Made by a program: the position numbers and the translations under genes. The notes beneath the pieces are model-generated. The model made no database searches. It was not told the DNA's origin and saw only the letters and a list, made by a program, of their open reading frames with translations. A stretch of 64,000 bases of DNA from Euglena gracilis (Eukaryota), in contig CP154954.1 in the NCBI GenBank assembly GCA_039621445.1, forward strand, positions 13,992,387-14,056,386, written 5' to 3'. Positions 525 to 61,939 of this stretch are shown here, piece after piece (the first letter of the stretch is position 1; the number at the start of each line of letters is the position of its first letter).

Positions 525-3500
525 CTTAGGCGGCCTAATTCGCATTTAAGCTTTTTTATTTTTTTGCGCATTTGCGCAAATTTGCGAATTTTTTGATTCT
601 GCTTTGATTCGGCTGTGAAGGTCAGGGTGGTTTGAAAACACGTTGACAAGAGAGTGCAAAAAATATGCAAAATTCTGTTTTTGGCTGTGTGACCCCCGGG
701 ACCTTGCCCGCCCGCACTGAAAAAAATAAAAAAAAACACCAAAGGAACGGGACCTTTACTGCCCTTGTTGCTTCTTTCGGCTGTGTCCCCGGGTGTGCCC
801 GAGCTGCCGGCGGTGTGTGTCCTGGGTTTTTACCGGACTGCTTTGCTTGCGACGCCTTGCTGTGGTGTTTTGGGGCTGTTTGTCAAAGCGCGGGGAGGAG
901 GTGCCGGGGGGTGTGGGTGTTGTGTGACCGAGTGGGAAGGAGGGACGCAGTGAGAGGAAGGTAAGTGTGGGGTGTTGGGCAAGGGAAGGGCAGGGGGGAA
1001 GAAATAGGGTCCATAGGGAATGAGGGGGATGGGTGTCTCCCACCCAGCTTATACCCGGAATCCACACAACCAGTTGTGTGGCAAAGAACCCAGCAGAAGA
1101 AGCCCAACACCGGAAGGACAAAATTGTGTTTATTTGCGCGCAAATGCGTGCACCAACATGTTTATGTTTATTTGCGCATTTGCGCAAATAAACATAAACA
1201 TGCCCTTCAAGGATTGGGCTTTAGTACCCATGAACTGACGCTGTTGAAAAACGGTGTGACAAAGGAGCTGTGAGTGCGCAGACCAACGGGCCGTCCAGTT
1301 GGTAGGTTCGTCACACTGTTTGTCGACACGCAAGCTTATGGGCGCAAATGCGCACACAAACAAAAATTATGTTTATGTTCGCATTTGCGCAAATGCGCAA
1401 ACAAACATGTTCTTTGTTTATGTGCGCAAACGCGCAAATAAACACAAAGAAGAACGGTGTGATGGAAACACAACCGTCAAACACCAGCAGCAGATGTGGT
1501 CTATTTGCGCATTTGCGCGCATCACATTGTTTGTGGGCGCAAATGCGCAAATAAACTGCATGAGAAAACTGTACAATGTACATTTGGTTTATCTGCGCAT
1601 TTGCGCAAATAAACCACGTGATGCGCGCAAATGCGCAAATAAACCACCAACGGAGGAGTTTAAAGCGACTTCATTTGGCACTCCAACAACCACCCTCAGT
1701 GGCTTCTGAACGGGTTCAACCCAAATGGCAACACCGTCTCCTCTGGTATATGGTGTTTTGGTGCCGTATCTGGTGCCTTGACAGGTCCCACAAAAGACGG
1801 GAGACAGAGGATGTCCTGAGGTGGGTGCGCAGCCACCCAGTAACCGTACTCGTCCACCGGCACCAATTTTTGGGTCCCAAGGGCCCTGCCACTGGCCTGT
1901 GGCCTCGGCTCCGCTGTTGTAGCCACATCAGCTGCTGATGCTTCAGCACCCACCAGACCGGCATCCACCTCCCCGGTGCAACAACACCCAGCTTTAGCGG
2001 CCACGTTATACCCCACAACCGGGGCGTGAGACTGGGGGGACGACGTGGTGCCAGTGTATGGCAACCGGCAGCCGGAAAAAGGTAGCCCTCAAACACCCGT
2101 TATTTTGGGTGCAAGGAAGTGGTGAACCTTTACCACTGGATTGGTCGCATCAAAGCTGTGGGACTCACTCACCCCAAATTATGCACAAAAACTGGTGTGT
2201 TTTACGCATTTCAAGGCGAAAACGGTGGAGAATAACCAGAAAACGGACTACGGCCAGACACATCCCAGGTATTTCAGGTGCCAAATTTTGATTTCTTGCA
2301 ACGCAGTACTGTTACAGAAAAGGTGCCGAACAGTCACAGGTCGTTTGCACGTCATCAATTCATTACGTTTAACTGCCAAACAGATGACACCAAAGGAACA
2401 GGCCGTGTGGGCCGGGTAACAGCAGTGCAAATGTACACACATAAGACAGGCAAATTTTGGCCCGTCACATGCCGTGTTCCAGTGAGCATTACACACCACC
2501 TCTCACCACAAATTTCATCGCCATGTAATTGTGGTGCAAATCAATGGTTGGCATGAGGAATTGCGTTCGCCAGCCGTCACGGACGAGGAGATGGTATCGC
2601 ACAACTGATGTTTGTTCATTTGCCCATTTTGCGCAAATAAACACAATTTTGTTTGTGTGCGTTAAGGCTCGCTCAAACACATCATTTTGAAGCGGTTTAT
2701 TAATTGTTTATTTGTGCATTTGCGCAAATGCGCACACAAACGTAATTCTGTTTATTTGTGCAATTGCGCGCACCAACACGCCCAACACGTTTTAAAACCT
2801 CGTACGGTCATGGTCCTCATCAGGCTTGCGCTTAGTCGGGTGCCTACCCCACGGGGGGGGGTGCTAGGGGCAGGCACCCCATAGCACCCGATCCGGCCCC
2901 CCCCCCAGGGGGGGGTAGGGTTTTGGGGGGTGCCTGCCCCTAGCAGGCACCCCCCTCCGACCCCGGCGCCGAAGGTGCCGGGGGCCCGGAAAAGGCAATT
3001 TTCAATGAAAATTTTCTGGGTCCGGCCCGGACCCCTATCCCCCCCCCGGGGGGGTGCCTGCTAGGGGCAGGCACCCTATAGCACCCTCCCCCCCCCTCCC
3101 CCCCCGGTCGGTAAGCACAAGCATGGTCCTCATTGGTGTCTTTTAACATTGAAAGTAAAAATACATGTTTATTTGCGCATTTGCGCAAATAAACATAACT
3201 ATGTTGGTGTGCGCATTTGCGCAAATGCGCACACCAACAAATTTGTTTGTGTGCGCATTTGCGCCCACCAACACGTCAATTTAACTTCATCGTTGTATGT
3301 TTTATTTGCGCAAATGCACCCATAAACACAATTGTTTTTATTTGCGCAAATGCGCCCATAAACACAAATCAGTTGCGTGATGGCTGGTTGACGTAGTCTG
3401 TAGCACGTGATGTAATGAGGCTCAGTGTGTTCTTATCGTCTGCGGCAGTATCCAAGTCAGTTCAGCCAGCACGTCAGCACCATTTCCAAGTGTCGTAACA

Positions 3501-4429: not shown

Positions 4430-13850
<9,421 letters not shown>

Positions 13851-16901: not shown

Positions 16902-43677
<26,776 letters not shown>

Positions 43678-46600
43678 GCTGTCCCCCCATCGAACTCAAC
43701 ACTTTGCCCCGCCTTCCACCCACCACGACGCATATGCATTCCTGTGTGTGTTTGCCTCCTCACCTTTTCCTGCGATTTTAACAGCACTTTCAAGACACCT
43801 GTCACGGCGTCTTTTGGACGTTTGGCATCGCCTGCGGGAGACGCCCCAGTTTTACTGATTTGTACCATGACGCTTTTTCAGGATGGCTTTATGCAATTTA
43901 GGGTCACTGGGACATTTTTGGGCCCATTTCGCACAGCATATGCTTCGCATGTAATACACGTTCGTGTGTGCATGTGCATCTGTGTGTGTGGATGTGTGTC
44001 CGCGCGCGTGTGCGTGCGTGCGTGTGTGCGCGCGTGTGTGTGTGCGTTTCTGGATGCAGCAATTAGCCTCTAACCGCCAAATCTAACATCACGTTCATAC
44101 ATGTGATATAAGACAATGTTCCCAATTAAACCCCCCAAATAACCTGGCGGGGTCCTTGCTCCTGGCAGGGGCCGAATTACTTGGCAGGGGGAGGGGCAAA
44201 AAAAGATGGTTCCAGTAACTTGGCACCCCCCTTTTCAGGCAAAATTCCTTCATGTCGCTGAAAAAGGGGCCAAATAACATTACGGGGGGGGGGCAGGGCC
44301 AAAAGTTAGTTTCAATAACCTGGCATTGTATTTGGGGGTGGGGGTTACATGATTCCCCTCTTGCTGGCTGTGACAGTGCGGAGCACGAGTGGGGTCCAAG
44401 GAGGAAAGGAGGGGGGTTTCATCTTCTCAGGGAAAAATAAAAGAGGCGGGTGAGGTTTTGCCATTGATCTCAGTTCCGTTGAACCTTTACCACACGAATG
44501 GGCTGTGTTTTTAACTGGCAGGTGCAACCCCGAAGCCTGTATTGGAGATTTGAAACTTTATTTCCGACATGCCTACCCCCCCCCTCTTTTGAAGGGTGGA
44601 TTGGTGGCTGAGTTCAGACGTTCAAATTCTCATCATTTGATGCACTTAGTTGGGCATTGACTTTTTGTTGCCGGGGCATCCCTCTCCCACAACCAGGGCA
44701 GTCCTCAGGTGCAGTTCTTCTCTTTACTTTTCTTAAGGACTCCTTGGTGACCCCTTCCGGGCAATTGGCCCAGAAGGGGGGAACTGGAACCCAACCCCAG
44801 TCGAAACCCAAGGCGTTGCAAAACCATATCTTTTTGCATGTTTCACGTTGCTGGGCGATGTTCTATGGATGCCAGGTGTCGTGGTTTTCGTGTTCGGAAG
44901 ATCATCGCTGAAATAATATCCCCTCTGCCCTCCAGAAGAAAATAAAAAAATTATTATTTTTTGTCCGCCAAGCCACTGTAGATTACCTGAAGGACGGGAC
45001 AGCCAATTTGGGGTTATGTTGGTCTGAGGTGGTCTCTGAAGCATGTGCGGCCTCGTGGAGCAACGGGTGAAACAAGTGGGGGTTTTTGAGTCCCCAACAA
45101 ACAGTATTTTTTCAGCCAGGCATCGAGTGCCCCACTTTGTTGTAGCTTTCCAAACCCCTGCCACGGTCAGGTTTCTTTTTTAGGACAGTCACACCTTGAG
45201 GGGGGCTGCCATATGGTCAGGCGTTTGAAACCCCTTCAAGGACAGGTTTTTAGGGGTGGTGGTTCAAAAGCCCCCCTTCCAGGGCGTTGCTTAAGAAAAT
45301 TTGGCCCCCCCAGGGGGTCCAGCCAGCCAGCAGCCTTTTTCCAGCCCTGGAACCCCCTCCCTCCCCCCATCAACGAGTTGCATTTATTTCCAGCCGCCCG
45401 AAGGGTGGCTGGACGGTAATGGATTTTTCGCTTTCAGGAGTGCAGAAAAAATGGGCCAAAAATGGGTCAAAAATGGGCGAAAATGGGCTGGAAGAGGCTG
45501 GCCAGGGCAAATTTGGGGTCAAGAAATCGATTTTTTTTGCATAATTGGCAGTTTTTTGGGGGTATTTTTGCAGTTTCCATTTCTTTTGGTACCCAGTTCG
45601 ACCCTGGGCACCAGCTCCAGGACCCCTATGGAGGGGAGGGGCATGGCGCAACCCCTACCCGCCCTGGGAGGGAGGGGTGGTCAAGACCCACTCTCCAACA
45701 CCCCCTGCGGTTGGGGTCACACAGGTGTTAAGTGAACCTACGTCTTGTACATGCAGCAAGTGTCAATTTTAGGACCCTGGGATTTTTACTTACTGACTTG
45801 AAATTGGGTTGGCCATCTGTCCTTGGGGCGACTGGATACAGTAGGGTTGGGGTTAGGATTGTTGATTCTTAAAAATACTCCCTTCCTCCCTACCCGTCTA
45901 TTTGGGGGAGAGGGGAAGCGCGTTTCCCTCAGGCGGCAGAGGGATAGCGGGAGAAAAGAAAATGCCAATCGTGCCTCAACCAGGGACCAGAGTACAATTT
46001 TCTTTCAGTCTCCCAAAAAAGGCTCTCTGGGGTTGTTGAGGAATTGGGTTAGGGTTACGGTTTTAGTATTCTGGCACAAAAGTGCTAGGGCCTAACAATC
46101 CTAAACACAACCGGACTTCTTCCAATAAACCCTAAAGCCACATCGTCAACTGGGTGTGAAGCTCAGAACCCCCGCAGGGATCCTGAACTTAACACGTACA
46201 TATTTTCCCATCATTTCCCACCGCACATTTTCTACATCTTTTGCCACCTTTTCAACATCTTTTGAAAGAGCCATTTTGAGATTTGTAAATTTCGGGAACA
46301 AACAGAAAAAAGAAGAGGTCCATTTTTTCCCTTTCACAATCATTGATCGTTCCAAAATCGAAATGGGGGTCATCCAGCAGCCATTTTCCAGCCAGTCCAA
46401 TTTTTCCAGCCTCTGAGCTTCCCCCCCCCCCCGGGGGGAGGGGGGTCCCTGAGCAACGCCCTGCCCCCTTCCCATGGTGGTGGTGCTCATGGCGCATGGC
46501 TGTGGGATGGCACCCCCGAGTACAAGCCACCCTCTTCCCCACCCAAAGGTCAATATGAACAAACAGTTATATTATTTTGATACATAAATAAATAAATAAA

Positions 46601-46774: not shown

Positions 46775-49700
46775 ATGGCCGCCGCCGGCCGGCTGCTGGC
46801 GGCGGTGCTCCTCCTCCTCCTCCCCCTGCCGGGGTCGGCGGCCCTCCAACGGCCGCCTGCCCACCGGCGGGTGGCCCCAGTAGGACCGCGGTCTGGCTTA
46901 GCCGCCGCCGCCGGCCGGGGCTTACAGACCGACCCGCGGCCGACCCCCGTGGACCGCGGCATGGACGGTGTGTAGCGTGGATCGGCCGGTGCCCGCACAA
47001 CGCTGCCATGGCACGCTCCCTGTTTGTGCTTGGTGTCGCTCTACTCGGGTCGAATGATTTCCCTCTTCGTGGGGGGAGGGGGGGGCGTTGCCACTTCTCT
47101 CTCTGCCTCTCGGCAAGGGGTGGCACAAAAGTGGTTTTATTTGTGTTTTTTGCTTGTTTTCCGAATTTTGCAAATCTTTTCTATTTATTATTTTCTACAT
47201 TTATTGTATCTTTTTTTGTTATTTTGCATTTTTTTTGCCTTTTTCCCCTGTCGCGATTCTTGAGGTCTGTGTTGCTGTTGCGCCCCCGCCGCTGCTCCAC
47301 CCTGAGCCTCTCATGCCCCCACAGGGCTGCCCACATCCAACAGCGCTCTCCCCAGTGACGGCGGCCCACTGACGCTGGCACCGGGGCTTTGGGCAGCAAT
47401 CGCGGTGGCGTGCCTGGCCAGCGTTAGTTGCGCACTGCGCCGCTGGTGGACGGGGGACAGCCGGACCGGCGTCCTCCGACCACTCTGTGACCCTCGCCAG
47501 GCACCGCCTTCCGCGAGGCCCTGAGGTTGCTGTGCAGATGCCCTGATAAACACCCCCCCCCCCCCAATGTGCTGATGTACACTGAGGGTCTTTAAATTTC
47601 GCCCTTGGAAAGAATCGGCAAGGTTGGGTTTTGTTTTTGTATTTTTGGGGTGGGGGTCCCAAAATCGGCCCAAAATTTTTGGGGGGGGTACCCAAAAATC
47701 AAAAATTTGGGTCTCCATTGACGACGAGAGAAAACCACAGGAAACAATGGTCGACCACATAAAGAACACTGGCCTTGCCACGAGTTCTGTTCCGAAGGTT
47801 CCATTTACGGCACTTCGAAAGCAGCTCCTCAATCAAAGCTTGCTGGGCGACACTTTTCACATTTTTCTGAAATTTCTCGAAAATGGTGGGGAATCAAAGG
47901 AAACGTCCACAAACCTAAATTGAAGCCCTTAACATGCCCTATCTAACAACATTTTGATTTCCCCGCAAGTCCCCGCTTAGCCCGAGTTACGGCCATTTTT
48001 CGGCCGATTTTGGCCATTTTGTACAGTTTTGGCCTGTTTTGACTTAGCCGTTTTCGGCCAGTTTTGGGTCAAAAAAGTCGGAAAAAATCGAAAAAGAATT
48101 TTGCCCGAAACGATGTTTTTTGGCCTCCCAGACCTGAAAAGCCTGTTTTTGAGCCCAAAATGAGCGTTTTTCGCCCCTCCAGCGCCCCGTTTTTGGCCCA
48201 AACTCATGGAGGGTGGTTGCGATTTTGGTGGCCTTGACACTGTGGTCACAAGGGACACGGTTGACAATCCCCTCAACAATGGCTTTGTGGGACAACAAAC
48301 GTTTATACACTTGCTGAGGGCAAATCTGGTATTGAACTCCTGTCCACAGCTTTGTAGAATTTCTTGAAAGAAGCCATAAAGAAAGGGCTGTGTTGCTGAG
48401 AAAAAAAATTTCAAACAGGGGGTCCCCAAAATACAAATTCTTGGGGTTTTTGGGGAAGTACCAAAAAAACAAACCCAAAACCCAACCTTGGAATCGGGAG
48501 TCTGTGTCAGGCCGACTACCTCAGGGATAGGGTATTTGGCGAAGGCATTTCCGGCACCAAAGGTAGCAGATGCCCAGAAAAGCCTATTTTGGGGAAATTC
48601 TTGAGTCACCGCTGCCCCCCCCCTGCCCTCACCCCGGGAGGGGTAGTGCTTGCCTGCCACTCCACAAGGGGGAAACACAAATTCGTTTTTTTGTTTGTTT
48701 TTGTGCTTTTTTGTTTACGGCAAAATATGTGTTTTTTTTGGTTTTTTTTGTGCTTTTCCGGTGATTTTTTTTCATTTTTGCAGGAAAAATTTTTGACAAG
48801 AAAAAATTCCTCGCCTTGGTCCCGATTTTCCCCAGGACTAAATTTTTTATCAACTTTTGGCATTTTAATGTTTTTTGGTCAACAAATTGCATATTTTTTT
48901 GCAAAAACGAAAAAAAATTCCCCATGGAGCCAAAATTATTTCTAGGTTCTCTCCAGCAGAAAGTGTGCATTCCGTGGAGCTTCTAAGAATTTCATATGTA
49001 ATTTGCCGTTTTTTTGTGTGTGTGTTTTGTGTTTATTTGTGTTTTTGTGCTTTTTTTACGTCGTGTTATTCGAGAGTCCATGTTGCGTTCCCCCCTCTTC
49101 CAGGGTACCCCTTTCACCTCCCCTCCCACCCTGGGTGATCAAATCAGTCGGTCTGTGTTTGTGGGTGGGGTTATTTGGAATCAGAATGCACACTGTCCGT
49201 GTCACCAGTCAGCTCCTGCACACCACCGATCTCCAAATGGGTGAACTCTGACTTTGTTCAGTTTTAGAGTTGCTGGTAATGACTCTAAGGCGGTGGGTGC
49301 GCCACAATGCAGGGTTTCCCACTGATTCGTACACGAATAAGTACGAATAAGTACGAATAAGTGCGAATTGCCGAGATGTGCCAAAATACGAATAAGTACG
49401 AATAAGTACGAATAAGTACGAATGAAAAATTCCCCAGTTACGAATAAGTACGATTGCCAAGTAGAAAAAGGTACAATTTTCTGCACCAGTGCACTGAGTT
49501 GAAGGGCCCCTCACACTTCTCTGTATGTGATGCATATCTTACGCTGCAGGACGCCTCATGTCCTCTTTTCCCTCCGAAAATGATTTTTAGGTTTGCCCAT
49601 CAACAAGTTAGACCATCCATCCATCAGGGGACTCATCCGAAAGTACACATCTGTACATGGCAGTGTGAAAGAGGGGAGTAGTTTGCACCGGTCAGTGGAC

Positions 49701-51443: not shown

Positions 51444-54400
51444 TGTGTGTGTGCGTGCATGTGCGTGTGCGTGTGTGTGTGCGTGTGCGCGCGCGACGTC
51501 ATGTGCTATGTTGTTGTTTTTTGCAGTTTTTGTGACGCCATACCGTCGGGTCTGGGGAGGACACAGAGTACGACGTGGTGGTGGTCGGCGCCGGGCACGC
51601 AGGCTGCGAGGCGGCTCTGGCGGCGGCGCGCCTAGGGGCCCGCACGCTGCTGCTGACGATGACCCTGGACAAGATCGCCTGGCAGCCGTGCAACCCGCCC
51701 GCGGCCCCGCAAGCACCCAGGGGATGGCTTGGGGCGGGGGGGGGGGCGCAAACTTTTTTGCGTGTTTTTGACGTTTTTCGATTTTAGCAAAAATTGCTTT
51801 TTTGCGGGTTTTTTTTTTTAGCATTTTTGCATTCGAGGGCACATGTTGCCTCCACCCCCCCCCGCTTCAAATGCGAATCAACCACAACCGTTCAACTTTT
51901 GAACGGGTGAATGTGGTTCGTTGAAAGAGATGTTGTCGTGTAGAGTACCCAGCACCACGATGGGCTGGGGTCCCGACTCAACCCCCCCCCCCCCCGGCTC
52001 ATTGGCCCAGTCCATTGTGGCCCCAACAAGCCGGAGGGGGGAGGGCAACTTCGGGGCGCCATGTTGACCCCAATGACCAAAGGGGGGGCAACCAGCCGCC
52101 AAGCCAAAATGCCTCAAAACAAAACCATAAAATATCTGCGCAACTCCATTGTCCCAGCTCAGGCTTCCTCGTCATACCTCCGCCGCCCCGGCTCATTTCC
52201 CCCCCCCCTGTTGGGGCCAACATGCCCCCCACCTCCAAAGTTGGCCACAGGCCCAAATGTTTCAGCCACCAGGTCCTGGCACCTCCAAAATCCCTATAAA
52301 TGGACAGCATTTTTTGGTCTTTCTGCAGGTGGGGTCCAACAAATCCCTACAAATCCCGACAGAGAAAAAATTTGTGCAAATGAATGCCTAGCCAATGCCT
52401 TCCTAGTGAATAACTTCGACCATCTTTTTGTCCTTCCTTTTTTGTTGCAAAGTTTTGTAGTTTTCTCTGTTCCTTGCTTTTCTTCTTTGAAAACTTTTTT
52501 GCCAAAGTGTGCCTGGTAGAAGATCAGCATCAGCAGACTTAGTACAGTCCGGACAAAAATGATGGGAAACAAAAGTAAAACAAACAAAAATATAAAATAT
52601 ATAAAACAAATAATATATAATATATAATGTGTAATATATAATATATAATACATAATATATCAATATATAATATAACATATAATAAATGGCATACAATGTA
52701 CAATAATATATAGCATATATAATAATAACACTGACATACATAACAATAAAATGATATTAAACAAAAATAATGGGAAACCACCCAATTTTCCCATTCATTC
52801 TTCCTATCATTTTCCCCTGTACTTTTTCTATGCCCTTTGGTGGGGGGCACGTTCAGGGGTAGTCAATTTTCACCACAAAAAGTTGGGGGTATGAAATATG
52901 GTCACGTTTGGACTTCTTTTTTTGTAATAAAGGAACCACAAAAAAGACACCTACAAAACGATTTTGACGATTTTTTAAACCTCAATTTAAGTTTCAATTT
53001 GAATATTTTTGAGTTTAAAAGCCAATTGCATAAAAAATATTTATTTTTGAAATTTATATTTAATTATATTTAAATCTTCAGTTGCTTTTCTGCTGATTTA
53101 TTCATAACAATTGAGAAAAAATACCACCATTTTCCATAAAAGTTTAATCTTCCCATTGCGTTGATTGCGTTTCCAACATTAAAGATTTTCCATCATTTTT
53201 TCACGTCATTGTTGTTTCCCATCGTCGGACCGTGTATGCATTCTGGATCAAATCTGTCCAAAATAATGTGGCCAGGACCCCAACCCCAGTGTTCAATCCC
53301 GACAAATCCCGACAAAACATAACAAATCCTGACAAATCCCAACAAATCCTGACACAGCCAAATCGCAAGTGTCTACAGATGTCTGTCAAGGATAACAAAT
53401 TGAATATGATTTTTGTTCTGTTTTGGAACAGAGGTTAGCTGGCTGGATCTTTCATCAATTTAGCTTGGGTGGATTAACCTCGGCGTTTCCAGGGGAGAGG
53501 TAACCACCTTGTCCATATCGGGGTAAGAAAATCTGTTCGTCAACATTTACTTCAGAATTAAGGCCTCTACAAAATGCATGGAAAGATGGTGGGACCAATT
53601 TCCACCACGACGCAGTATTTGTGCTGGGAGGGGGGTGCTCGCCAGCATGCCAGGGGGGTGCTCGCCAGCCCAAAACTCCAAAAAAATGATGTTTTCACCA
53701 TTTTTATTTCACCGACCTCTCCCCCAATGAATGAAAAGGAGTTTATTTAGTTTGAACAAACGAAAAAAAAAACAATAATTTCCCCTTTTTTTTCTGTTTT
53801 CACGGGTTTATGTTGTTGTTTGCCAGGCCGGGCAGCGATGGCAGCCGTCGGGGGCTCCGCCAAGAGCCAGCTGGTGCACGAGGTGGACGCGCTGGGGGGT
53901 GAGATGGGCAAGGCGGCCGACGCGTCGTACCTCCACAAGCGCCTCCTGAACGCCTCCAAAGGACCGGCCAGGCCTGAACGCCACCGCTGAGCGGCCAAAG
54001 CAGCTCCTCCATGAGTTTGACTTTGGTTTTGGTTTGGGGTTGCGTCATTTTTGTCATTTTTTTTCATTTTTGTCATTTTTGCCATTTTGTTGATTTTTTA
54101 CATTTTTATTATTTCTGTAATTTTTGTCTTTTTTTGGCATCCATGCCATTTTGGCAGAGTTTTGTGCCTGAGGTCGGCTGTGCATGCCCTGCGAGCCCAG
54201 ACAGACAAGGTACGCTCTGCCCCAAGCGTGGCTGTCTGCACATTCACAGGGTCACAGGCTTGCCGACATCCTGTGTTTTGCATGTCTGATGCTTCGTGTC
54301 TATGCAAACTGGTGCTGGAAAGGCAGACAGAAAAGCGTGCAGGGATTGGATGTTTTGGTGATTTTAAGAAACAGGAACCCAAATTTACCTTAGTGTGCAG

Positions 54401-57400
54401 CCTGAACCTTCATAAGGAGGAAACCTTGGACGAGGAGGAGAACCGTTTCCCATTCAGCAGTTTTTGTTTCGGGAGCATGCAAGGGAAATATTATTTAATT
54501 ATAACACAGCAGGTCAAGCAACACAATTTTCAAAAAATATATAATTTATATTTTTATATTTTTAATATTTTATTAATATTTTTTTTTGCTAAAGCAGGAA
54601 GAATGTATAATGCAATTTGCATCGATTCTTGTCGATCTGAAAGGCACATTCGACTCTTTGGCCCCTGCCTTTCAGGTGGAGTACTCACAATATATGCGGC
54701 AGGTGCTGGAGACCACCCCGAACCTCTGCCTGCGCGAGGGCACCGTCAGCGAGCTGTTAGTGGATGAGCACAACGACGAGGTCCGCGGGGTGCGGGCCAT
54801 GGATTCCCTGCCCCCTGCGGTGACCCACCCAGGGGGGGGGGTGTGAAGGAGGGGTGGGGGGGTGGGTAGGTTTGGACCGCTGGGCCCTCGGGGGGGGGGG
54901 GGAGCAGACATTCATTTAGTGTGGTACACCAAGGTTGTCATTTTGTGGTTCACTGTGGACACCAAAAATTTTTTGTGGTTCACATATGGACACCAGAAAA
55001 ATTTTTGTGGTTCACCTGTGGACACCAAGAAAATATTTGTGGTTCACATGTGGACACCAAACATTTGGGTCAATAAATCGATTTTTCTGATAATTGTTAA
55101 ATGATGAAAATTTCGAAAGTGGTGGGCAGGGAATTTCTTAAGGACCCCCCGGGGGGGTCCAGCCTCCGGCTGGCAAAAAGGCTGCTGGCTGGATTTGAGC
55201 TGCTGGCTGGACCCCCCCGGGGGGGTGGGGGGGGGAGGGGGGGGGTCCGGGGCTGGAGGGGGCTGGGCTGGGCTGGGTCGGCGAAAAACAAAATTTTCTA
55301 ACACATTTTTGCCATTTTCGACATTTTGGTGGATGGAGCTAGATCAAGGCTGGGGACTGTGATGGAGGAAGCTGTGGTGAGGGGAAAAAATGCAGGGATA
55401 GGTGAGCTGGGCAGCCCAGTTGGCTGGCCAGCCTGCGGCCGGCTGGCCCGGCCTTCGGCCGGCTGGCCCGGCCTTCGGCTGGGCTGGACCCGACTTTATT
55501 TCAGTCGACCCCTGGGGGGGGGGGTCCCAGCCCGAATTTGGGCTGCGGGCTGGATTTGAGCTGCTGGCTGGCTGGACCCCCCCCCCGGGGATAGGGTACC
55601 CTCCGGCTTAAGAAATTCCCTGGTGGTGGGGAGTTAAAGGAAACGTCCCGTGACTTGAATTGAAGCCCTTTGAAGCCCTATCTAACCGTATTTTGATTTC
55701 CCCGCAACTCCCTGCCCAGCCCGAGTTACAGCCATTTTTCGGCCAATTTGGGCCATTTTGTACAGTTTTGGCGTGTTTTGACTTAGCCGTTTTAGGCCAT
55801 TTTGGGGTTAAAAAAGGTGGAAAAAATTCGGAAAAAAAGTCGAAAAAAAATTCAGCCCGAAACGATTTTTCTCGGACCCAGAAGAACTGTTTTTGAGCCG
55901 AAAATGAGAGTTTTTTGACCCGTTTTTGACCCGTTTTTTTGACCTGTTTTTGGCGCCGGAAGGTTTTTTGCCCCCGCAGAGGAGGGGGGGGGGAGGTCCC
56001 CCCTTCCAAAACAAGGGGGTGGGGGGACCAGGTTTGAATAGCGTTGAGCTCTTAATGGGACTTGCACGTAATGGACGAGGGAAAAGACTAGCATCGCAAA
56101 TTTCGCATAAATTATGATTTACAAATTACACACCTGCAATTTGCAGTTATTTACAGTAATTTTTGAAAGGTTAAGAGGTCAGCGACCCCCTCCCATACCC
56201 CCTACACCCCTTTGGTTCAACTTTTTTGACCCGGAAATTTAGAAGTTTCGCGACCGAAAACTGGAGGTTGGAGGGGGTCCCCCACCCCCCCCCCCCTCCG
56301 CCGAGATTCCCATACAAGCCTGGGGGTGTGATTCGCTGCCGCATTTTACAGATTGCGCCGGAGCCAAGGTCCATATTTTGGCGTCTCAAGATCAATCCGC
56401 TTTTAGTTGTAAAACTTGATTTTTTTTTCGATCCTCAATCATGTTTTGTGGGCAACAAATTTTTTTGTGGACACCAAAATTTTTTTTGTGGTTCACCTGT
56501 GGACACCAAAAAAAATTTTGTGGTTCACATGTGGACACCAAAAATTTTTTTGTGGTTCACCTGTGGACACCGAAAAAAAATTTGTGGTTCACACGTCTTT
56601 TGTGAACCACACTAAATGAATGTCTGGGGGGGAGAGGTGCATTATTTGTTCGCGTGTTTGGGCCCAGGGAAAAGTCTCCCTGGGGGGGGTATTGAAGTGA
56701 ATCCATGGGACGGACCGTGTACGGGATGGAGTTCCATGCCCCGACCCTCGTGCTGACCGCTGGTACAGCCAGCGGCGAGCTTTAGAACATCCCAGGTTTG
56801 GAATGCCCAGCCTTGTTGCATCTTTTTTTTTGCCCACTCAATTTCCCTCCCCCCTGGTGCTCCCCCTTGCAAGTGATGGGTAGGCGGAGTTGTTCCAAGT
56901 GAACCAGCATGTGTGTTTTTCTTTGAGAGCACCATAGGGCACCACCCAAGGAATCAGAACAGGCTGGCTGGGGTTTCCCGCATTTTCAAGGGGGTGGGGT
57001 CAGTCGGTGTCGGTGGCCGATGGCACACCCCACACATGCTTTGCCCGGGCCGCCCGTCAGTCGCCGCTGCCGCCCGTTCATGAACGGCACCATCTGGGTG
57101 GGCCGCACCACGCGCTCCGCTGGGCGGGCCGGGGAGCAGGCCTCGACGGGCATCACGGAGCAGCTGCAGCGTCTGGGACAGGCCGGGCCGGGGGGCCAGG
57201 GTGCTCGGGGGCGGTGGCGGTGCGTGGGCGTGCCCCGTGATGTGGTGACGTGGTTGTCGCGGACCTGGGTGTCCAGCTGTGGCCGGTGCTGCAGTGGTGT
57301 CGTTTCATGGCCGGGGCGAGCTGGCCACCTCTTTTCAACCAGCCTTTTCCCCCCACCTTTCGCCTTGAAGCTGTCCTTGTTGCCAGAGTCGCTGTTGAAG

Positions 57401-60400
57401 TTGTCATTAATTGCGTTTTTGGTGGCAATTTGCATTTGGAGCTTTGTTCTAAAAGGACTACAAATGATACAGTTGTGGCCAGGCTGTTCTCCAGAAGGGT
57501 CACCCCATGGTGGGGTGCTTTGGGCAGGCAGGAGAAGACAACATCTTCGAACCCCTAGGGTCGGGTTGGGGAGGAGGTGTTAATTATCTGTGCATCCCAG
57601 GCACCGAAAGCGCCGAGGGGCGGAAAACGGCCATTCTCAAGCAGTGCGGTCCATTTGGGACGGGAAGGTTTTTTTTCCCATCAAGGACCGCCCTTAGGCC
57701 ACTGAAACAGCCGGTTCAGAACTCAAATGTTGTTAAAAATGAAAATGTCTAAGAACACATTTTTGACGTTTTGGGTGGACGGGCGATGGTCCAAGGTTGT
57801 TCCACACCATTTTTTTTCCTTCACCAAGTCGGCCCGTTTTGCCATGATATGGCCATACCATTTTCTCGGCAATGTTTCCTGCGGATTTCTCGTGGAATGC
57901 GCTGAGACAGGGAATGGGAATTTCGTCTCCTTCGCCGAGTCGGTTCCCCAAAACGACCCTGCAACGGAAAGGCCCCCAAACGGCACAAGGTGTCGCCCTC
58001 CCCCAAGCGTCTGACTGTAGCAATGCGGTCCAGCCCCGCGGACGCATCCGTCGGGGCCCCAGTGCCGGGCCTGGCCGAGGCTTCACCACCGACCGGCTGA
58101 AGACGGGGACGCCGCCCCGTGTCGATGGCCGGACCGTGAATTTCGCCGTGATGGAGCCAAACATTCACTTACCCGCCCCCCCTGTCATACGACCACCCCT
58201 CATTTACGACCACCCCCCCGGTCACAGGTTGCAGGTCATGGGGGTGTTATGACCACCCCCCCCCCCCCGGTCACAGGTTGCAGGTCATGGGGGTGTTATG
58301 ACCCCCCCCCCGGTCACAGGTTGCAGGAACCCGGTCGTACGACGGGGGGGGGGGGGCGGGTAACATTGATTTGACCCCCGGTTCCCGAAAACAGTCGGTG
58401 TGGGTGGGTGGGTTTGCGCCCAGGAAGTGTGTTGCTAAGTGAATCTGTGGATGGAGCCGATGCCAGGGGACTCCCGCACGCGGTGGTTCACCCACGACAC
58501 CGCTCGGCACGTGGAGCGGGAACAGGTCAGGGATTTTTTTTGGCTGGGTGGAAAAGTCGCAAAATTTGCCTCGCTTTTGTCCGCTGGTGGAGTTGCATTT
58601 TGCTCACAGCCCCAAATATTTTTTTTTTCACAAAAGCCCCAATTATTTTCAGCCAAACAGCCCTGCACCGATGCTGTGCTACGGGACGCGGACGACCGCC
58701 GCCACCCACCAACTGATCCGCGACAACCTCCACGAGACTCCGAACAGGGCCCGGCAGATGGCGGTGTTTTGGGGAACAGAAGTGTACAGTGAATTGTGTC
58801 TGGCCAAGTGCTTACCCGCAATCCATCCGGGACAAAGGTGGTATAATTATACATTAAATTGTTTCGATGAAGGCTTTCACATTCGGACCTCAAGCATCCA
58901 CTGAATTTTGGTACTGCTGACCTTGGAAGGTTGGGAGACAGATGCCTGTTGGGACCCGGTTTTCTTTTGTTGATTCACCCGGACCCTGGGGTGGATCTAT
59001 GGCGGTTGGGTGGATTCCAAAGGCCCTCGCAACTGCCCTTCCATCGAGGACAAGATTGTGAAGTTTGCCCAGAAGGAAAGCCACCTGGCGCCGAATGGAG
59101 ATTTGAATCCTCCCCCAGCCGCTTAGTGAGAACCGCCAGTGGAAGAGCTCTGCAACACCGGAATCAATGAAATTGCTTCCAAGCTTGGGTGAAATGAAAC
59201 TCGAACGCAGAGCTGCAGCACAGACACCACCGAAGCCAAATATGAAAAAAATATTAATTGTAATTTATGTTAATGAATTGGAAAACACTGATTAATTATA
59301 ATTATTGATCAAAAATACGAAAAAAAAGTAATCTTATTATGAATAATAGTAAACACTGACACAAATATTAAATATCATTATAAATATTAAGATATTGCAT
59401 TATAAACATTATTATTATTATTATTATTGAATAATATAATTGTAAATATCATTAATTGCCCCTTTTCTCACCGCCCGACCCCATTCGACTCCGAGGCCAC
59501 CCAGTGTTCCTGGAGCCCGAGGGGCGCCGCACGCCGGAGCTCTACGTCCAGGCCCAGGGTTTGAAACCAGCAGAGCGGGCACCGGTGCTCCCCCTCGTCC
59601 TCCCTGAACAATGGCAAACCCTGCCCGGGGCTGCTCCACCGGGCTGCCAGAGCGCCTGCAGCTGGGGCTGCTGCGGGCTGGGGGGTCCCGGAACGAGGGG
59701 TCAGGGCAGGTCTCGCACACTACACGCAAACAGAAACGGACACTGCCAAGAGACCCAGACATGCCCGTCTGTTCACACTCACACCCACTCATTCATCACA
59801 GGGCAGGGGGGAGGAATGCGCCGCGCATTTTTGCGCATTTTTTGCGCATTTTTTCCATTTTCCCACTTTTTTTTTACACTTTTTGGAGGCATTTTGTCCA
59901 TATTGTCCACATTGTCCATATGTCAAAAATAAATTTGACATTGGTGTTCTTGAACACCGTTCTTCTGAACAATTCTATGTTGCCATCCATCCCTCTTTCC
60001 GCCAATAATCAAATTCTCCATTCTTCCCTCAGATTTTTTCACAAAATGGCTTCAAGTTCAAGGGCTGATCATCCAACCTTTTGTTCAATGGAAATTTTAT
60101 TCTTGGACAAAAGCTTGCTGCCAAGAAGTTGAGCAGATGGAGCAAGATGAAATGCGGAATCCTACTCCCCTGGTCACAAGTAAGCGGCACCATGGCTGAC
60201 ATTGTTGGTTATGGTGAACGGAGAGTGACGCTGCTGAGTGACGTTGCTCGTGCATTTTTTTTTGGCCAAAATGCCTTCATTTCAGCTCTTTTTGGTGATT
60301 TTGGTTTAATTTTGGGCTTATCGTTGGAAATTTTTCTAAGTCCTTTTTCCCTTAGGAATTTCACAACTCAGCGCATTTTTGCGCATTTTTGCGCATTTTT

Positions 60401-61546
60401 TTCCGAGGGCCGTCCAGCGCATCCCCCCCCCTGCACATGGGTAGACACGCACTCGCATTTATTTTAAAGCATACACACTCCCGTGCACACAAGCAGATAA
60501 ACGATAAACGCACAAACACACACAGACAAAGAAACACACATGTGTGCATAAACACACGCACGATCCTCAAACGTTGGTGGTGTCCTCCACGTTCTACAAA
60601 AGAGCTCCACATATAATCACCCTTTGAAGCTCAACCCTCGCTGCTCTTCCTCCCCCTCTTGTTTGGACCTCGCCCGGGCTCCCCCATCGAGGGACGCTGC
60701 CGGGGATGGAGCAGGTGAAGATGGTGCGGCCCGGCTATGCCATCGAATATGACTACATTCCCGCCACGCAGTGCACGCGAACCCTGCAGGCCAAGACGGT
60801 GCGCGGCCTGTACCTCGCTGGCCAGGTGTGCGGGGGCGGAATGAAAGTGGCACCTTGAATTGACCTATCCCCTGCGAAACACCAGCTCCATCACTTACCA
60901 ATTGATTTGATACACACACATATATACACATATTCATATATATGATCACATATGAATATATTAACAACGTGCATTACGAATATGTATTAACATGTATTAA
61001 TATGTTCATGCAGGTATGAATGCATAGCAATGCATTTTTTTAATATATATAATATGTATTAATATATCAATGTGTACAAATATGTTTTAATGTATATTCA
61101 TAGGTTGATAAATAATTGTATTTATATGATTTTTATTTCAAATCCAGCCCCCCCCCACAGGTGTGCGGCACGACGGGGTACGAGGAGGCGGCGGGGCAGG
61201 GCCTCGTGGCGGGGGCCAACGCCGCCCTCGCAGCGCTGGGCCGCCCAGGGGATTTAGTGAACTGGTGTTTTGCACAGGCAGAGGGGCAGACCCGGGCAGG
61301 AGGGGGGGCAGACCCGAAGGTGGGACCCCCCGCGCGATTTGTTTTCTTGGAGCATGCTCTAGATTTTGTTAAAAAAAAACGTATGCGAAGCCGCGATATT
61401 GGACCTTTTTTCCCAGTTCCCCCAAAATTTTTCCAGCGCTTTAAGCTGGAGAGTCTGTTGTGCCCCCCCCTGGTCACTCAATACCCTGTGGCCGCCCCGC
61501 GCTGGAGCTGCCGCGGGAGTCGTCGTACATCGGCACCATGGTGGAC
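46775..61546 (+). CDS. mnmG: plastid-targeted tRNA uridine-5-carboxymethylaminomethyl modification enzyme MnmG/GidA, multi-exon, 3' part beyond the window
   Basis: Exons: 46775-46967 (signal peptide [23 protein letters not shown]), 47325-~47500 (second [23 protein letters not shown]), ~50931-50981 (frame uncertain), 51560-51696 ([23 protein letters not shown]...[10 protein letters not shown]), 53843-53965 ([19 protein letters not shown]), 54176-54209, 54676-54794, 56713-56766, 57076-57175, 58079-58154 ([13 protein letters not shown]), 58455-58525, 58671-58741, 58994-59082 ([11 protein letters not shown]), 59499-59551 (FLEPEG), 59629-59674, 60692-60825 ([10 protein letters not shown]...LAGQ), 61161-61242 ([12 protein letters not shown]), 61494-~61546 ([11 protein letters not shown]). 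Confidence 0.95.
47897..48180. repeat. dispersed repeat, homologous to ~55637-55960
   Basis: Both copies share AAGGAAACGTCC...TTGAAGCCCTT...TTTTGATTTCCCCGCAA...GCCCGAGTTAC...TTTTGTACAGTTTTGGC...GACTTAGCCGTTTT. A fragment also lies at ~63045-63110. Confidence 0.85.
49310..50290. mobile_element. ~1-kb MITE with 23-bp perfect TIR, 7-bp TSD and subterminal 10-bp arrays
   Basis: CAGGGTTTCCCACTGATTCGTAC (49310-49332) is perfectly inverted at 50268-50290. TSD CACAATG at 49303-49309 and 50291-50297. (GTACGAATAA)n arrays lie at both ends. Confidence 0.92.
51697..53842 (+). other. nonconventional intron in mnmG
   Basis: Joins AAC CC|A GCC (CNPAVGG). gccCGCGGCCC pairs with GGGCAGCGatggc. Y|R at both borders. 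Confidence 0.8.
53966..54175 (+). other. nonconventional intron in mnmG
   Basis: Joins GGA CC|G GCT ([11 protein letters not shown]). ggcCAGGC...GCCTGaggtc, with CAG at +4 and CTG at -8. Confidence 0.85.
54905..56626. mobile_element. 1.7-kb hAT-like non-autonomous element
   Basis: TIR CAGACATTCATTTAGTGTGGT is perfect over 21 bp. 8-bp TSD GGGGGGAG. Subterminal TGTGGTTCACCTGTGGACACCAAAAA arrays. Confidence 0.9.
55127..55622. mobile_element. hAT-like MITE nested in 54905-56626
   Basis: Perfect 16-bp TIR CAGGGAATTTCTTAAG. Perfect 8-bp TSD GTGGTGGG (55119-55126, 55623-55630). Confidence 0.92.
56767..57075 (+). other. nonconventional intron in mnmG
   Basis: Joins GGT AC|G TTC (AGTFMNG). Perfect 9-bp stem CAGCGGCGA / TCGCCGCTG, in a 3+6 register. 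Confidence 0.8.
57176..58078 (+). other. nonconventional intron in mnmG
   Basis: Joins CTG|GGC TTC ([10 protein letters not shown]). ggaCAGGCCGGGC / GCCGGGCCTGgccga stem (9/10). Confidence 0.82.
58155..58454 (+). other. nonconventional intron in mnmG that is a TIR element with a perfect 8-bp TSD
   Basis: GATGGAGC at 58150-58157 and 58450-58457 flanks CAAACATTCACTTA...TAAGTGAATCTGTG. Removal gives [12 protein letters not shown]. Confidence 0.85.
58169..58363. mobile_element. small TIR element with ~50-bp internal tandem repeats, inside an intron
   Basis: TTACCCG-polyC-TGTCATACGACC is inverted as GGTCGTACGAC-polyG-CGGGTAA. Three CCGGTCACAGGTTGCAGG units. Related sequence at ~32860-32970. Confidence 0.7.
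58526..58670 (+). other. intermediate intron in mnmG (GT 5' end, non-AG 3' end, paired ends)
   Basis: Joins GAA CAG|ATG (EREQMLCY). CAGGG / CCCTG stem; 7 nt in total lie outside the stem. Confidence 0.7.
58742..58993 (+). other. nonconventional intron in mnmG
   Basis: Joins ACT CC|G ATC (HETPIYGG). gaaCAGGGCCCGG / CCGGACCCTGgggtg stem (9/10). Confidence 0.85.
59083..59498 (+). other. nonconventional intron in mnmG with 7/8 TSD
   Basis: Joins AGC C|AC CCA ([12 protein letters not shown]). Flanks AAGCCACC / AGGCCACC. Stem TGGCGCCGAATGG / CCATTCGACTCCG. Confidence 0.82.
59552..59628 (+). other. 77-nt nonconventional intron in mnmG
   Basis: Joins CAG|GGC ([11 protein letters not shown]). Perfect 9-bp stem CAGGGTTTG / CAAACCCTG. 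Confidence 0.85.
59675..60691 (+). other. intermediate/nonconventional intron in mnmG
   Basis: Joins C|GG ACG (LLRTLPG); the boundary can slide by 2 nt. Stem TGGGGGTCCCGG / CCGGGCTCCCCCA. Confidence 0.7.
59804..60433. mobile_element. MITE with 7-bp TSD
   Basis: CAGGGGGGAGGAATGCGC / GCGCATCCCCCCCCCTG termini. Flanks CACAGGG / CACATGG (6/7). GCGCATTTTT repeats. Confidence 0.75.
60826..61160 (+). other. GT-AG intron in mnmG flanked by an 11-bp direct repeat
   Basis: CAGGTGTGCGG at 60823-60833 and 61158-61168. Joins [11 protein letters not shown]. Confidence 0.85.
61243..61493 (+). other. nonconventional intron in mnmG with 7/8 TSD
   Basis: Joins GGC C|GC CCC ([11 protein letters not shown]). 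TIR CAGGGGATTTAGTGA / TCACTCAATACCCTG (13/15). Flanks GGGCCGCC / TGGCCGCC. Confidence 0.88.
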
Positions 61547-61939
61547 GGCCGCCGCCCTGCATGGATGGCACCAGGACCCACTGAGTCCAGAGGGGAGGGG
61601 GCGGTTGTTGTCTGAGGTTGTGACGGGGACCGGCTCACCCCCCCCCCTGCAACCCTCGCACCCGCCAATACAAGGCCCTCCTACCTCCTATTACAAAAAT
61701 CTGCGGCCGTGGTATCTGCCAATTTTTTATTCAGTACGTCAGAGTGCAAGGACAGTGGGGGGGCATCTTGCACAGGTGGGCGTGGTAGATAGAAAGCACA
61801 GGGAATCCCAGAGTGCTGGCAACACATGCTGTTTGCACTCCTGCCCTGTTTGCACACAGTGCCCTGTTGGAAGGAGGGAGTTTGATTGGGGGGTCACCCA
61901 ATTTTGTTAACTGTCTCTGGTCTCAACTGGGTTTTTAAC

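Follow-up and report, generated by a model that had tools for sequence, protein, structure and literature searches.

The window analysed here is a 64,000-nucleotide stretch of DNA from Euglena gracilis (GenBank assembly GCA_039621445.1, contig CP154954.1, forward-strand positions 13,992,387 to 14,056,386; all coordinates below count from its first letter). It holds two neighbouring split genes, Ufd2 (16900-43700) and mnmG (51500-61600), together with free elements bounded by terminal inverted repeats (TIRs). We focus on the introns of mnmG, most of which lack the GT-AG ends of conventional introns. The origin of the nonconventional introns of euglenids and the reason for their cut geometry, 3 nucleotides (nt) before and 5 nt after a terminal stem, are open questions. 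An initial annotation of the window had joined the two by arithmetic: 3+5 = 8 would be the footprint of a target site duplication (TSD) of 8 bp, each intron being a transposable element of the miniature inverted-repeat kind (MITE) spliced out with exactly one TSD copy.

Introns of mnmG and their terminal stems

The tRNA-modification enzyme MnmG (GidA family; PF01134 on homologs) is encoded by a split gene between 51.5 and 61.6 kb of the window. A database search returned no protein identical to the predicted MnmG; mnmG is a bacterial-type gene, and its nearest database relatives are bacterial, with 55-64% identity. The closest relative of the exons is P0002, a transcript-like euglenid sequence of 581 amino acids (aa) that matches them at 60-100%. 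When metagenomes were scanned with P0002 for orthologous DNA, only bacterial MnmG loci were found, at up to 64% identity. The gene runs on beyond 61545, and no later exons could be detected before the end of the window.

With P0002 the introns can be sized independently of any splicing rule: every donor and acceptor position between adjacent exons was tried, and the best alignments to P0002 were kept (P0003 at the first junction). This sized 14 introns, all on the plus strand, with alternative lengths scoring 1-7 alignment points lower; several junctions can be slid by 1-13 positions at the protein level. Only two of the 14, intron 3 (54210-54675, 466 nt) and intron 13 (60826-61160, 335 nt), are GT-AG introns, the former of conventional type, and the other twelve are non-GT-AG.

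In nine of these twelve, the length given by homology equals the span of the terminal stem plus 8. Introns 2 (53966-54175, 210 nt; CAG...CTG stem 53969/54170), 4 (54795-56712, 1918 nt; perfect 9-bp stem 54798/56707), 6 (57176-58078, 903 nt; stem 57179/58073), 7 (58155-58454, 300 nt; stem 58158/58449), 9 (58742-58993, 252 nt; stem 58745/58988), 10 (59083-59498, 416 nt; stem 59086/59493, the outer pair a wobble), 11 (59552-59628, 77 nt; 9-bp stem 59555/59623) and 14 (61243-61493, 251 nt; stem 61246/61488) are nonconventional, and intron 1 (51697-53842, 2146 nt) is a non-GT-AG intron with a weak, non-CAG stem (51700/53837, 8 of 10 pairs). To check the stems, the best right-hand partner was sought for the sequence starting 3 nt into the intron, and in all nine it lay 5 nt from the intron end. 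With cuts placed 3 nt ahead of the stem and 5 nt behind it, the resulting protein matches the homolog in every one of these nine introns, as the initial annotation had said of the same set.

This geometry agrees with the euglenid splicing code established by knock-in mutagenesis, N3-CDG ... CH'G-N5-6 | purine (Nomura et al., 2025; PMC12501133), which demands a donor spacer of exactly 3 nt and paired CAG/CTG and works best with an acceptor spacer of 5 nt, 6 nt being accepted. The paired motif is CAG/CTG in introns 2, 5, 6, 9, 11 and 14 and a variant of it in introns 1, 4, 7 and 10, and the first exon base after the 3/5 cut is a purine in all nine introns of sum 8, matching the published code. 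Introns 8 and 12 do not fit the published spacing of paired C-D-G and C-H-G, and intron 5 fits it as 3+6.

The two spacers add up to the same total however far a junction is slid along a direct repeat, which makes their sum a robust measure, and we searched for it with a stem scan that used homology junctions and base pairing only, took no information from the flanks and allowed sums of 0-16. The top stem had a sum of 8 in 7 of 13 non-GT-AG introns (the 12 of mnmG and one of Ufd2). In introns 4, 7 and 10 the top stem and the sum-8 stem are one helix, the former being longer by one chance pair or shorter through a mismatch or wobble at its end. None of 16 GT-AG controls had a top stem of sum 8, and their stems were weaker. 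We therefore regard the 3+5 geometry as real in nine of the twelve non-GT-AG introns of mnmG, as far as homology-placed junctions can tell. An ab initio intron finder based on stems and third-position G+C content (GC3) was dropped as non-specific, with 8235 hits on a single strand.

The three remaining non-GT-AG introns went unmentioned when the 3+5 = 8 rule was first put forward. Intron 5 (56767-57075, 309 nt) is nonconventional, with a 9-bp CAG...CTG stem (56770/57069), a sum of 9 that can be read as 3+6 or 4+5, and flanks alike at 2 of 8 positions. Intron 12 (59677-60693, 1017 nt) has a stem rich in G and C (59680/60685) and a sum of 9 or 11. Intron 8 (58526-58670, 145 nt by homology) starts with GT and does not end with AG; its stem (58528/58665) gives a sum of 7. 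A good polypyrimidine-AG acceptor lies at 58652, and homology to P0002 favours the end at 58670, by the CAGGG/CCCTG stem; the two models differ by 6 residues, which are extra if the intron is GT-AG. Intron 8 may thus be either of an intermediate type or a GT-AG intron ending at 58652.

At intron 13, a GT-AG intron, a direct repeat of 11 nt stands at both junctions (60823-60833 and 61158-61168), over which the junction slides across 12 positions, and a stem of 9/10 pairs lies at most 1 nt from each end. The intron looks like an "intermediate" intron or another kind of insertion. P0001, a genomic fragment from a related euglenid, runs into non-coding sequence at the position of intron 13, and also just upstream of the exon that follows intron 12. 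At 58204-58327, intron 7 has a tandem repeat (49-nt unit, 2.7 copies) in which runs of C and G abound.

Junction repeats, free elements and the Ufd2 gene

If an element and one copy of its duplication were removed together, the 8 nt before the stem should resemble the 8 nt after it. We compared these two 8-mers in the nine sum-8 introns of mnmG. Identities were 8/8 in intron 7 (58150-58157 and 58450-58457), 7/8 in introns 10 and 14, 5/8 in introns 2, 4 and 11, 4/8 in intron 6, 3/8 in intron 1 and 2/8 in intron 9, exactly as first reported, and they total 46/72. Left flanks paired with the right flanks of other introns reach a mean of 3.07/8, which exceeds the random level on account of G+C richness and the purine shared at position 6. 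When partners were shuffled 200,000 times, a total of at least 46 appeared in 0.017% of runs (P = 1.7e-4), and shifting the right flank by -4 to +4 lowered the total to 13-28. The check proposed with the rule, 8-mer identity against shuffled junctions, thus came out, for the nine mnmG introns of the window, above the shuffles and above every shifted register. In the same register, 20 GT-AG introns of the window average 3.3/8, with two at 6 and none at 7 or more.

Free elements were sought as pairs of CAG... and ...CTG ends less than 5 kb apart whose first 12 nt are complementary at 10 or more of 12 positions. At offset 0, the 8-mers flanking the 231 candidates were perfect repeats in five cases and 7/8 in three, against 0-2 each at seven control offsets. 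One of these eight hits is mnmG intron 14 itself, and another, 42761-46463, has the same right end as the element at 45280 and is probably an alternative pairing of it. Perfect flanking repeats numbered five at a length of 8, two at 7, and none at 6 or at 9-13. A looser scan confirmed a further element at 2821-3125, which brings the free elements with perfect 8-base duplications to six, plus one with 7/8. For the four that the initial annotation had named (2821, 11067, 54905 and 55127), both the perfect duplications and the CAG...CTG-type ends were confirmed.

The 2821-3125 element is 305 nt long. Those at 11067-11466 (400 nt), 34857-35108 (252 nt, flanks 7/8, within a GT-AG intron of Ufd2) and 45280-46463 (1184 nt) have CAGGG-type ends. 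The largest, 54905-56626 (1722 nt), lies in mnmG intron 4; its ends are identical over at least 20 nt, and near each of them stand four copies of a 32-nt tandem repeat (54941-55061 and 56466-56592) in inverted orientation, which may be transposase-binding repeats. An internal 307-nt stretch of it matches 47884-48177 at 80%. Nested within it is the element at 55127-55622 (496 nt), with perfect 16-nt ends starting CAGGG, so that intron 4 contains two free elements. Four of the free elements have a common 16-nt end consensus that starts with CAGGG. Excision of the element with one duplication copy, tried at 11067, 23862, 34857, 45280, 54905 and 55127, joined no convincing coding frame. Poly-G and poly-C runs are very frequent across the window, and several of the target duplications are rich in G or C.

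The ends of some introns resemble those of the free elements. Intron 7 and the 54905 element agree, by manual count, at 12 of 15 positions of one end and 12 of 16 of the other; one end of intron 4 falls into the same end group. For intron 14, 13 of 16 positions are shared with one CAGGG-type end of the 34857 element.

In Ufd2, a first search for exons gave a single genomic fragment of 145 aa. We sized 22 introns with P0122, a 955-aa transcript ortholog from MMETSP, alternative lengths mostly scoring 7-12 alignment points lower. GT-AG is among the top-scoring junctions in 14 of the 22, and in a further four a GT-AG pair of unchanged length comes within 3-8 score points. The remaining four comprise one GC-AG intron (by inspection), one probable GT-AG intron of slightly altered length, one without a model, and one that is clearly nonconventional. 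The latter, at 26537-27253 on the plus strand, had already been noted; homology to P0122 confirms its length of 717 nt, it has a CGG...CTG-type stem (26540/27248), a sum of 8 and a flank identity of 6/8, as first reported, and no further one was found among the sized introns.

Nonconventional introns thus make up one, perhaps two, of 22 in Ufd2 and 12 of 14 in the neighbouring mnmG, a contrast in keeping with the view in the literature that nonconventional introns are the later gains. The sixth free element with a perfect 8-base duplication, 23862-24239 (378 nt), stands at the 3' end of a Ufd2 intron (approximately 23200-24243) that has no GT-AG solution. Its right end lies 4-5 nt upstream of the homology-inferred exon start (about 24244), and may serve as the acceptor-side motif of this larger intron. 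Other introns of Ufd2 contain long (CA)n-type microsatellite tracts (31527-32300 and 33153-33300).

Origin of the nonconventional introns

The window thus offers three observations together: the stem geometry, flank repeats in register with it, and free elements that carry 8-base duplications and have ends similar to those of the introns. From these we infer that the introns began as insertions of such elements and that the agreement of 3+5 with 8 has a causal basis. Non-autonomous cut-and-paste elements of small size, their inverted ends of CAG...CTG type, would move as DNA in this euglenid nuclear genome and duplicate 8 bases of target. Once such an element sat in an exon, its inverted ends could pair in the pre-mRNA, and the nonconventional splicing activity would cut 3 nt before the first base of the stem and 5 nt after the last. 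Since 3+5 equals the length of the duplication, the element would leave with exactly one copy's worth of it, 8 nt, and the mRNA would return to its sequence before the insertion, in either orientation of the element. Once an insertion was fixed, the two copies would drift in their intronic halves, which would give a series of identities from 8/8 downwards. We consider it probable, with ample room for doubt, that the introns are insertions of 8-bp-TSD elements into exons, spliced out with one duplication copy's worth of sequence.

Several points weigh against this account. Three of the twelve non-GT-AG introns of mnmG (56767-57075, 58526-58670 and 59677-60693) miss the sum of 8 and need another explanation, such as other element types, later indels that were compensated, or conversion from conventional introns. 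The junctions themselves are inferred from homology to the transcript-derived proteins of related species, P0002 and P0122. Under the published code the acceptor spacer may be 5-6 nt long (PMC12501133). All flank identities of the proposed "decay series" are exact and the series as a whole stands above shuffled partners, but without the three introns at 7/8 or better the identity is 24/48 against 19.5 expected, which is marginal (P = 0.037). As these three hold most of the flank signal, the series is carried mainly by introns 7, 10 and 14, and the other six show a weak repeat signal. GT-AG introns carry junction repeats too, including the 11 nt at intron 13, so that some repeat-making process besides an 8-bp duplication must exist.

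Further points concern the mobile nature of the introns. End similarity is the only pointer to their membership of a mobile family, and it is suggestive: a rough binomial estimate puts the probability of chance likeness at about 0.03-0.07 after multiple comparisons. A pattern derived from the ends of intron 7 and the 54905 element was not significantly enriched in the window (6 occurrences with at most one mismatch against 2.98 expected, a number reached in 8 of 100 shuffles). Such end-motif patterns were drawn after the ends had been seen, and enrichment of them is therefore weak or circular evidence. When 15 intron pieces and 6 free elements were queried against the 64-kb window, no second copy of any intron body was found. 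The label "introner-like" holds for the logic of the arrangement, but the multi-copy feature that defines introners is not seen within these 64 kb. The window also contains no transposase gene, its longest frame being at most 336 aa, and Merlin elements with 8-bp duplications, whose ends start with GG, occur in E. gracilis (PMC8101967), which leaves the superfamily of the free elements open. As an explanation of the 3/5 cut, the 8-bp footprint is partly supported: the sums, the in-register repeats and the free elements peaking at 8 speak for it, and the off-rule introns, the six weaker flank pairs and the lack of second intron copies in the window against it.

The most serious competing view is that the spacers are set solely by the splicing machinery, that the free elements are ordinary transposons with a common end motif, and that the repeats reflect cut-site preferences (pyrimidine|purine) plus chance. 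Position-specific composition of the flanks does lift the identity of non-self pairs to the level given above, six of the nine introns lie at 5/8 or below, three others sum to 7, 9 and 9-11, and the published code has arbitrary-N spacers with an acceptor of 6 nt accepted (PMC12501133). Shuffling of partners, however, retains the position-specific composition and still gives the low P value, and a preference confined to one or two positions would not lead one to expect flanks alike at 8/8, 7/8 and 7/8 in exact register. The GT-AG controls never reach 7, and a published strain-specific intron has 8-nt repeats (PMC4770533). Coincidence combined with splicing constraint is on this evidence unlikely.

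We give still less credence to repair of double-strand breaks, in which staggered breaks take up filler DNA and come to be flanked by short direct repeats that vary in length, and inverted ends evolve or are selected later. Such repair was proposed by Milanowski et al. (2016) for a recent intron in gapC of E. agilis (PMC4770533); repeats flank 84.4% of E. agilis introns of both types (PMC12501133), and the 11-nt repeat at GT-AG intron 13 indicates that their length is not confined to 8. Yet in the window the repeats directly abut the inverted-repeat ends, those of the free elements are 8 long with none at 9-13, and copies of the same architecture exist outside introns, which break repair does not predict.

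It is very improbable that the pattern is an artefact of the gene models, with junctions misplaced by way of a related species' protein and stems or junctions picked to fit the rule: the junctions do rest on homology, several of them slide, and intron 8 has an alternative GT-AG model, but the spacer sum is constant under sliding, lengths were set before stems were sought, with other lengths scoring lower in both genes, and the stem scan was blind to the flanks.

The insertion account is, in sum, a plausible new synthesis, coherent but not proven. If 3+5 is the footprint of an 8-bp TSD, the source elements are still visible as hAT-like elements, and euglenids would have a simple and immediately neutral route to massive intron gain, parallel to that of introners and independent of spliceosomal removal. 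Junction repeats, abundant and left aside in earlier genome-wide studies, would become key data.

More tentatively, euglenid nonconventional splicing as a whole might act as an eraser at the RNA level that is tuned to a single transposon class, with 3/5 offsets that exist because CAG...CTG elements duplicate 8 bp; we see this as possible and would not yet lean on it. Any element newly inserted in an exon would then be silent from the outset, whichever way round it sat, and such an eraser would explain why about 70% of introns in E. agilis are nonconventional, why the two junctions have one sequence context in common and why most introns are "slidable". The cutting and joining activity could, on the eraser reading, be derived from the element's own transposase or have co-evolved with it.

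Published precedents and known systems

Several pieces of the insertion account are already in print: the 3+5 cut geometry, the idea of a MITE origin, TSD-like repeats at junctions, and a strain-specific intron with 8-nt repeats. A MITE origin of these introns was proposed by Milanowski et al. (2014; PMC3935182), and a review of 2024 describes TSD-like repeats as frequent at junctions (PMC11282704). Nomura et al. (2025) report short direct repeats at the borders of 84.4% of E. agilis introns, conventional and nonconventional together; they mention a MITE-like source, assign the removal of nonconventional introns to nonconventional machinery, and excluded the repeat-flanked "slidable" introns when the motif was derived (PMC12501133). 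In the text covered, the papers on these introns (Nomura et al., 2025; Milanowski et al., 2014 and 2016) treat the spacers as arbitrary and do not tie 3+5 to the length of a duplication, and in the paper of 2025 the terms TSD and target site duplication do not occur. What the initial annotation had given as established is correct, namely spacers of 3 and 5-6 nt (PMC12501133), 8-bp duplications by hAT elements (PMC3260210) and the MITE proposal (PMC3935182). In the open-access main texts covered by full-text search, no publication equates 3+5 with an 8-bp duplication, and none reports free CAG...CTG elements with 8-bp duplications in any euglenid. The synthesis of the published pieces with the evidence from the window appears unpublished.

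The mnmG introns are like published euglenid nonconventional introns in their non-GT-AG ends, paired motifs at +4..+6 and -8..-6, spacers of 3 nt at the donor and 5 nt at the acceptor, the purine that follows, and the junction repeats. With the introners of Micromonas, Aureococcus and others they share a logic, in which a DNA transposon in an exon is removed from the RNA, the message is restored and the duplication enters the arithmetic (PMC11282704). Introners are removed by the spliceosome at GT/GC-AG, the TSD supplies a splice site, and many near-identical copies exist (PMC11282704). In mnmG, by contrast, removal would be nonconventional and guided by a stem, with a duplication of 8 bp and ends other than GT/GC-AG, and the 64 kb hold no multi-copy intron family.

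The free elements are most like the hAT superfamily. Ac/Ds elements of this superfamily make 8-bp duplications and have ends that begin with C/TAGGG (PMC3260210), and non-autonomous members such as maize Ds (PMC3260210) and the free elements have in common the 8-bp TSD, short TIRs with such beginnings, a size of about 0.3-1.7 kb and subterminal repeats. No hAT transposase was found in the window, so that membership of this superfamily is not proven for the free elements. P-type elements also give 8-bp duplications.

The closest published parallel to a single intron of mnmG is intron 4 of gapC in E. agilis strain ACOI 323, a recent nonconventional intron that is absent from other strains and has direct repeats of eight nucleotides (Milanowski et al., 2016; PMC4770533). 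Its authors ascribe it to the repair of a double-strand break; in its repeats it is like intron 7 of mnmG.

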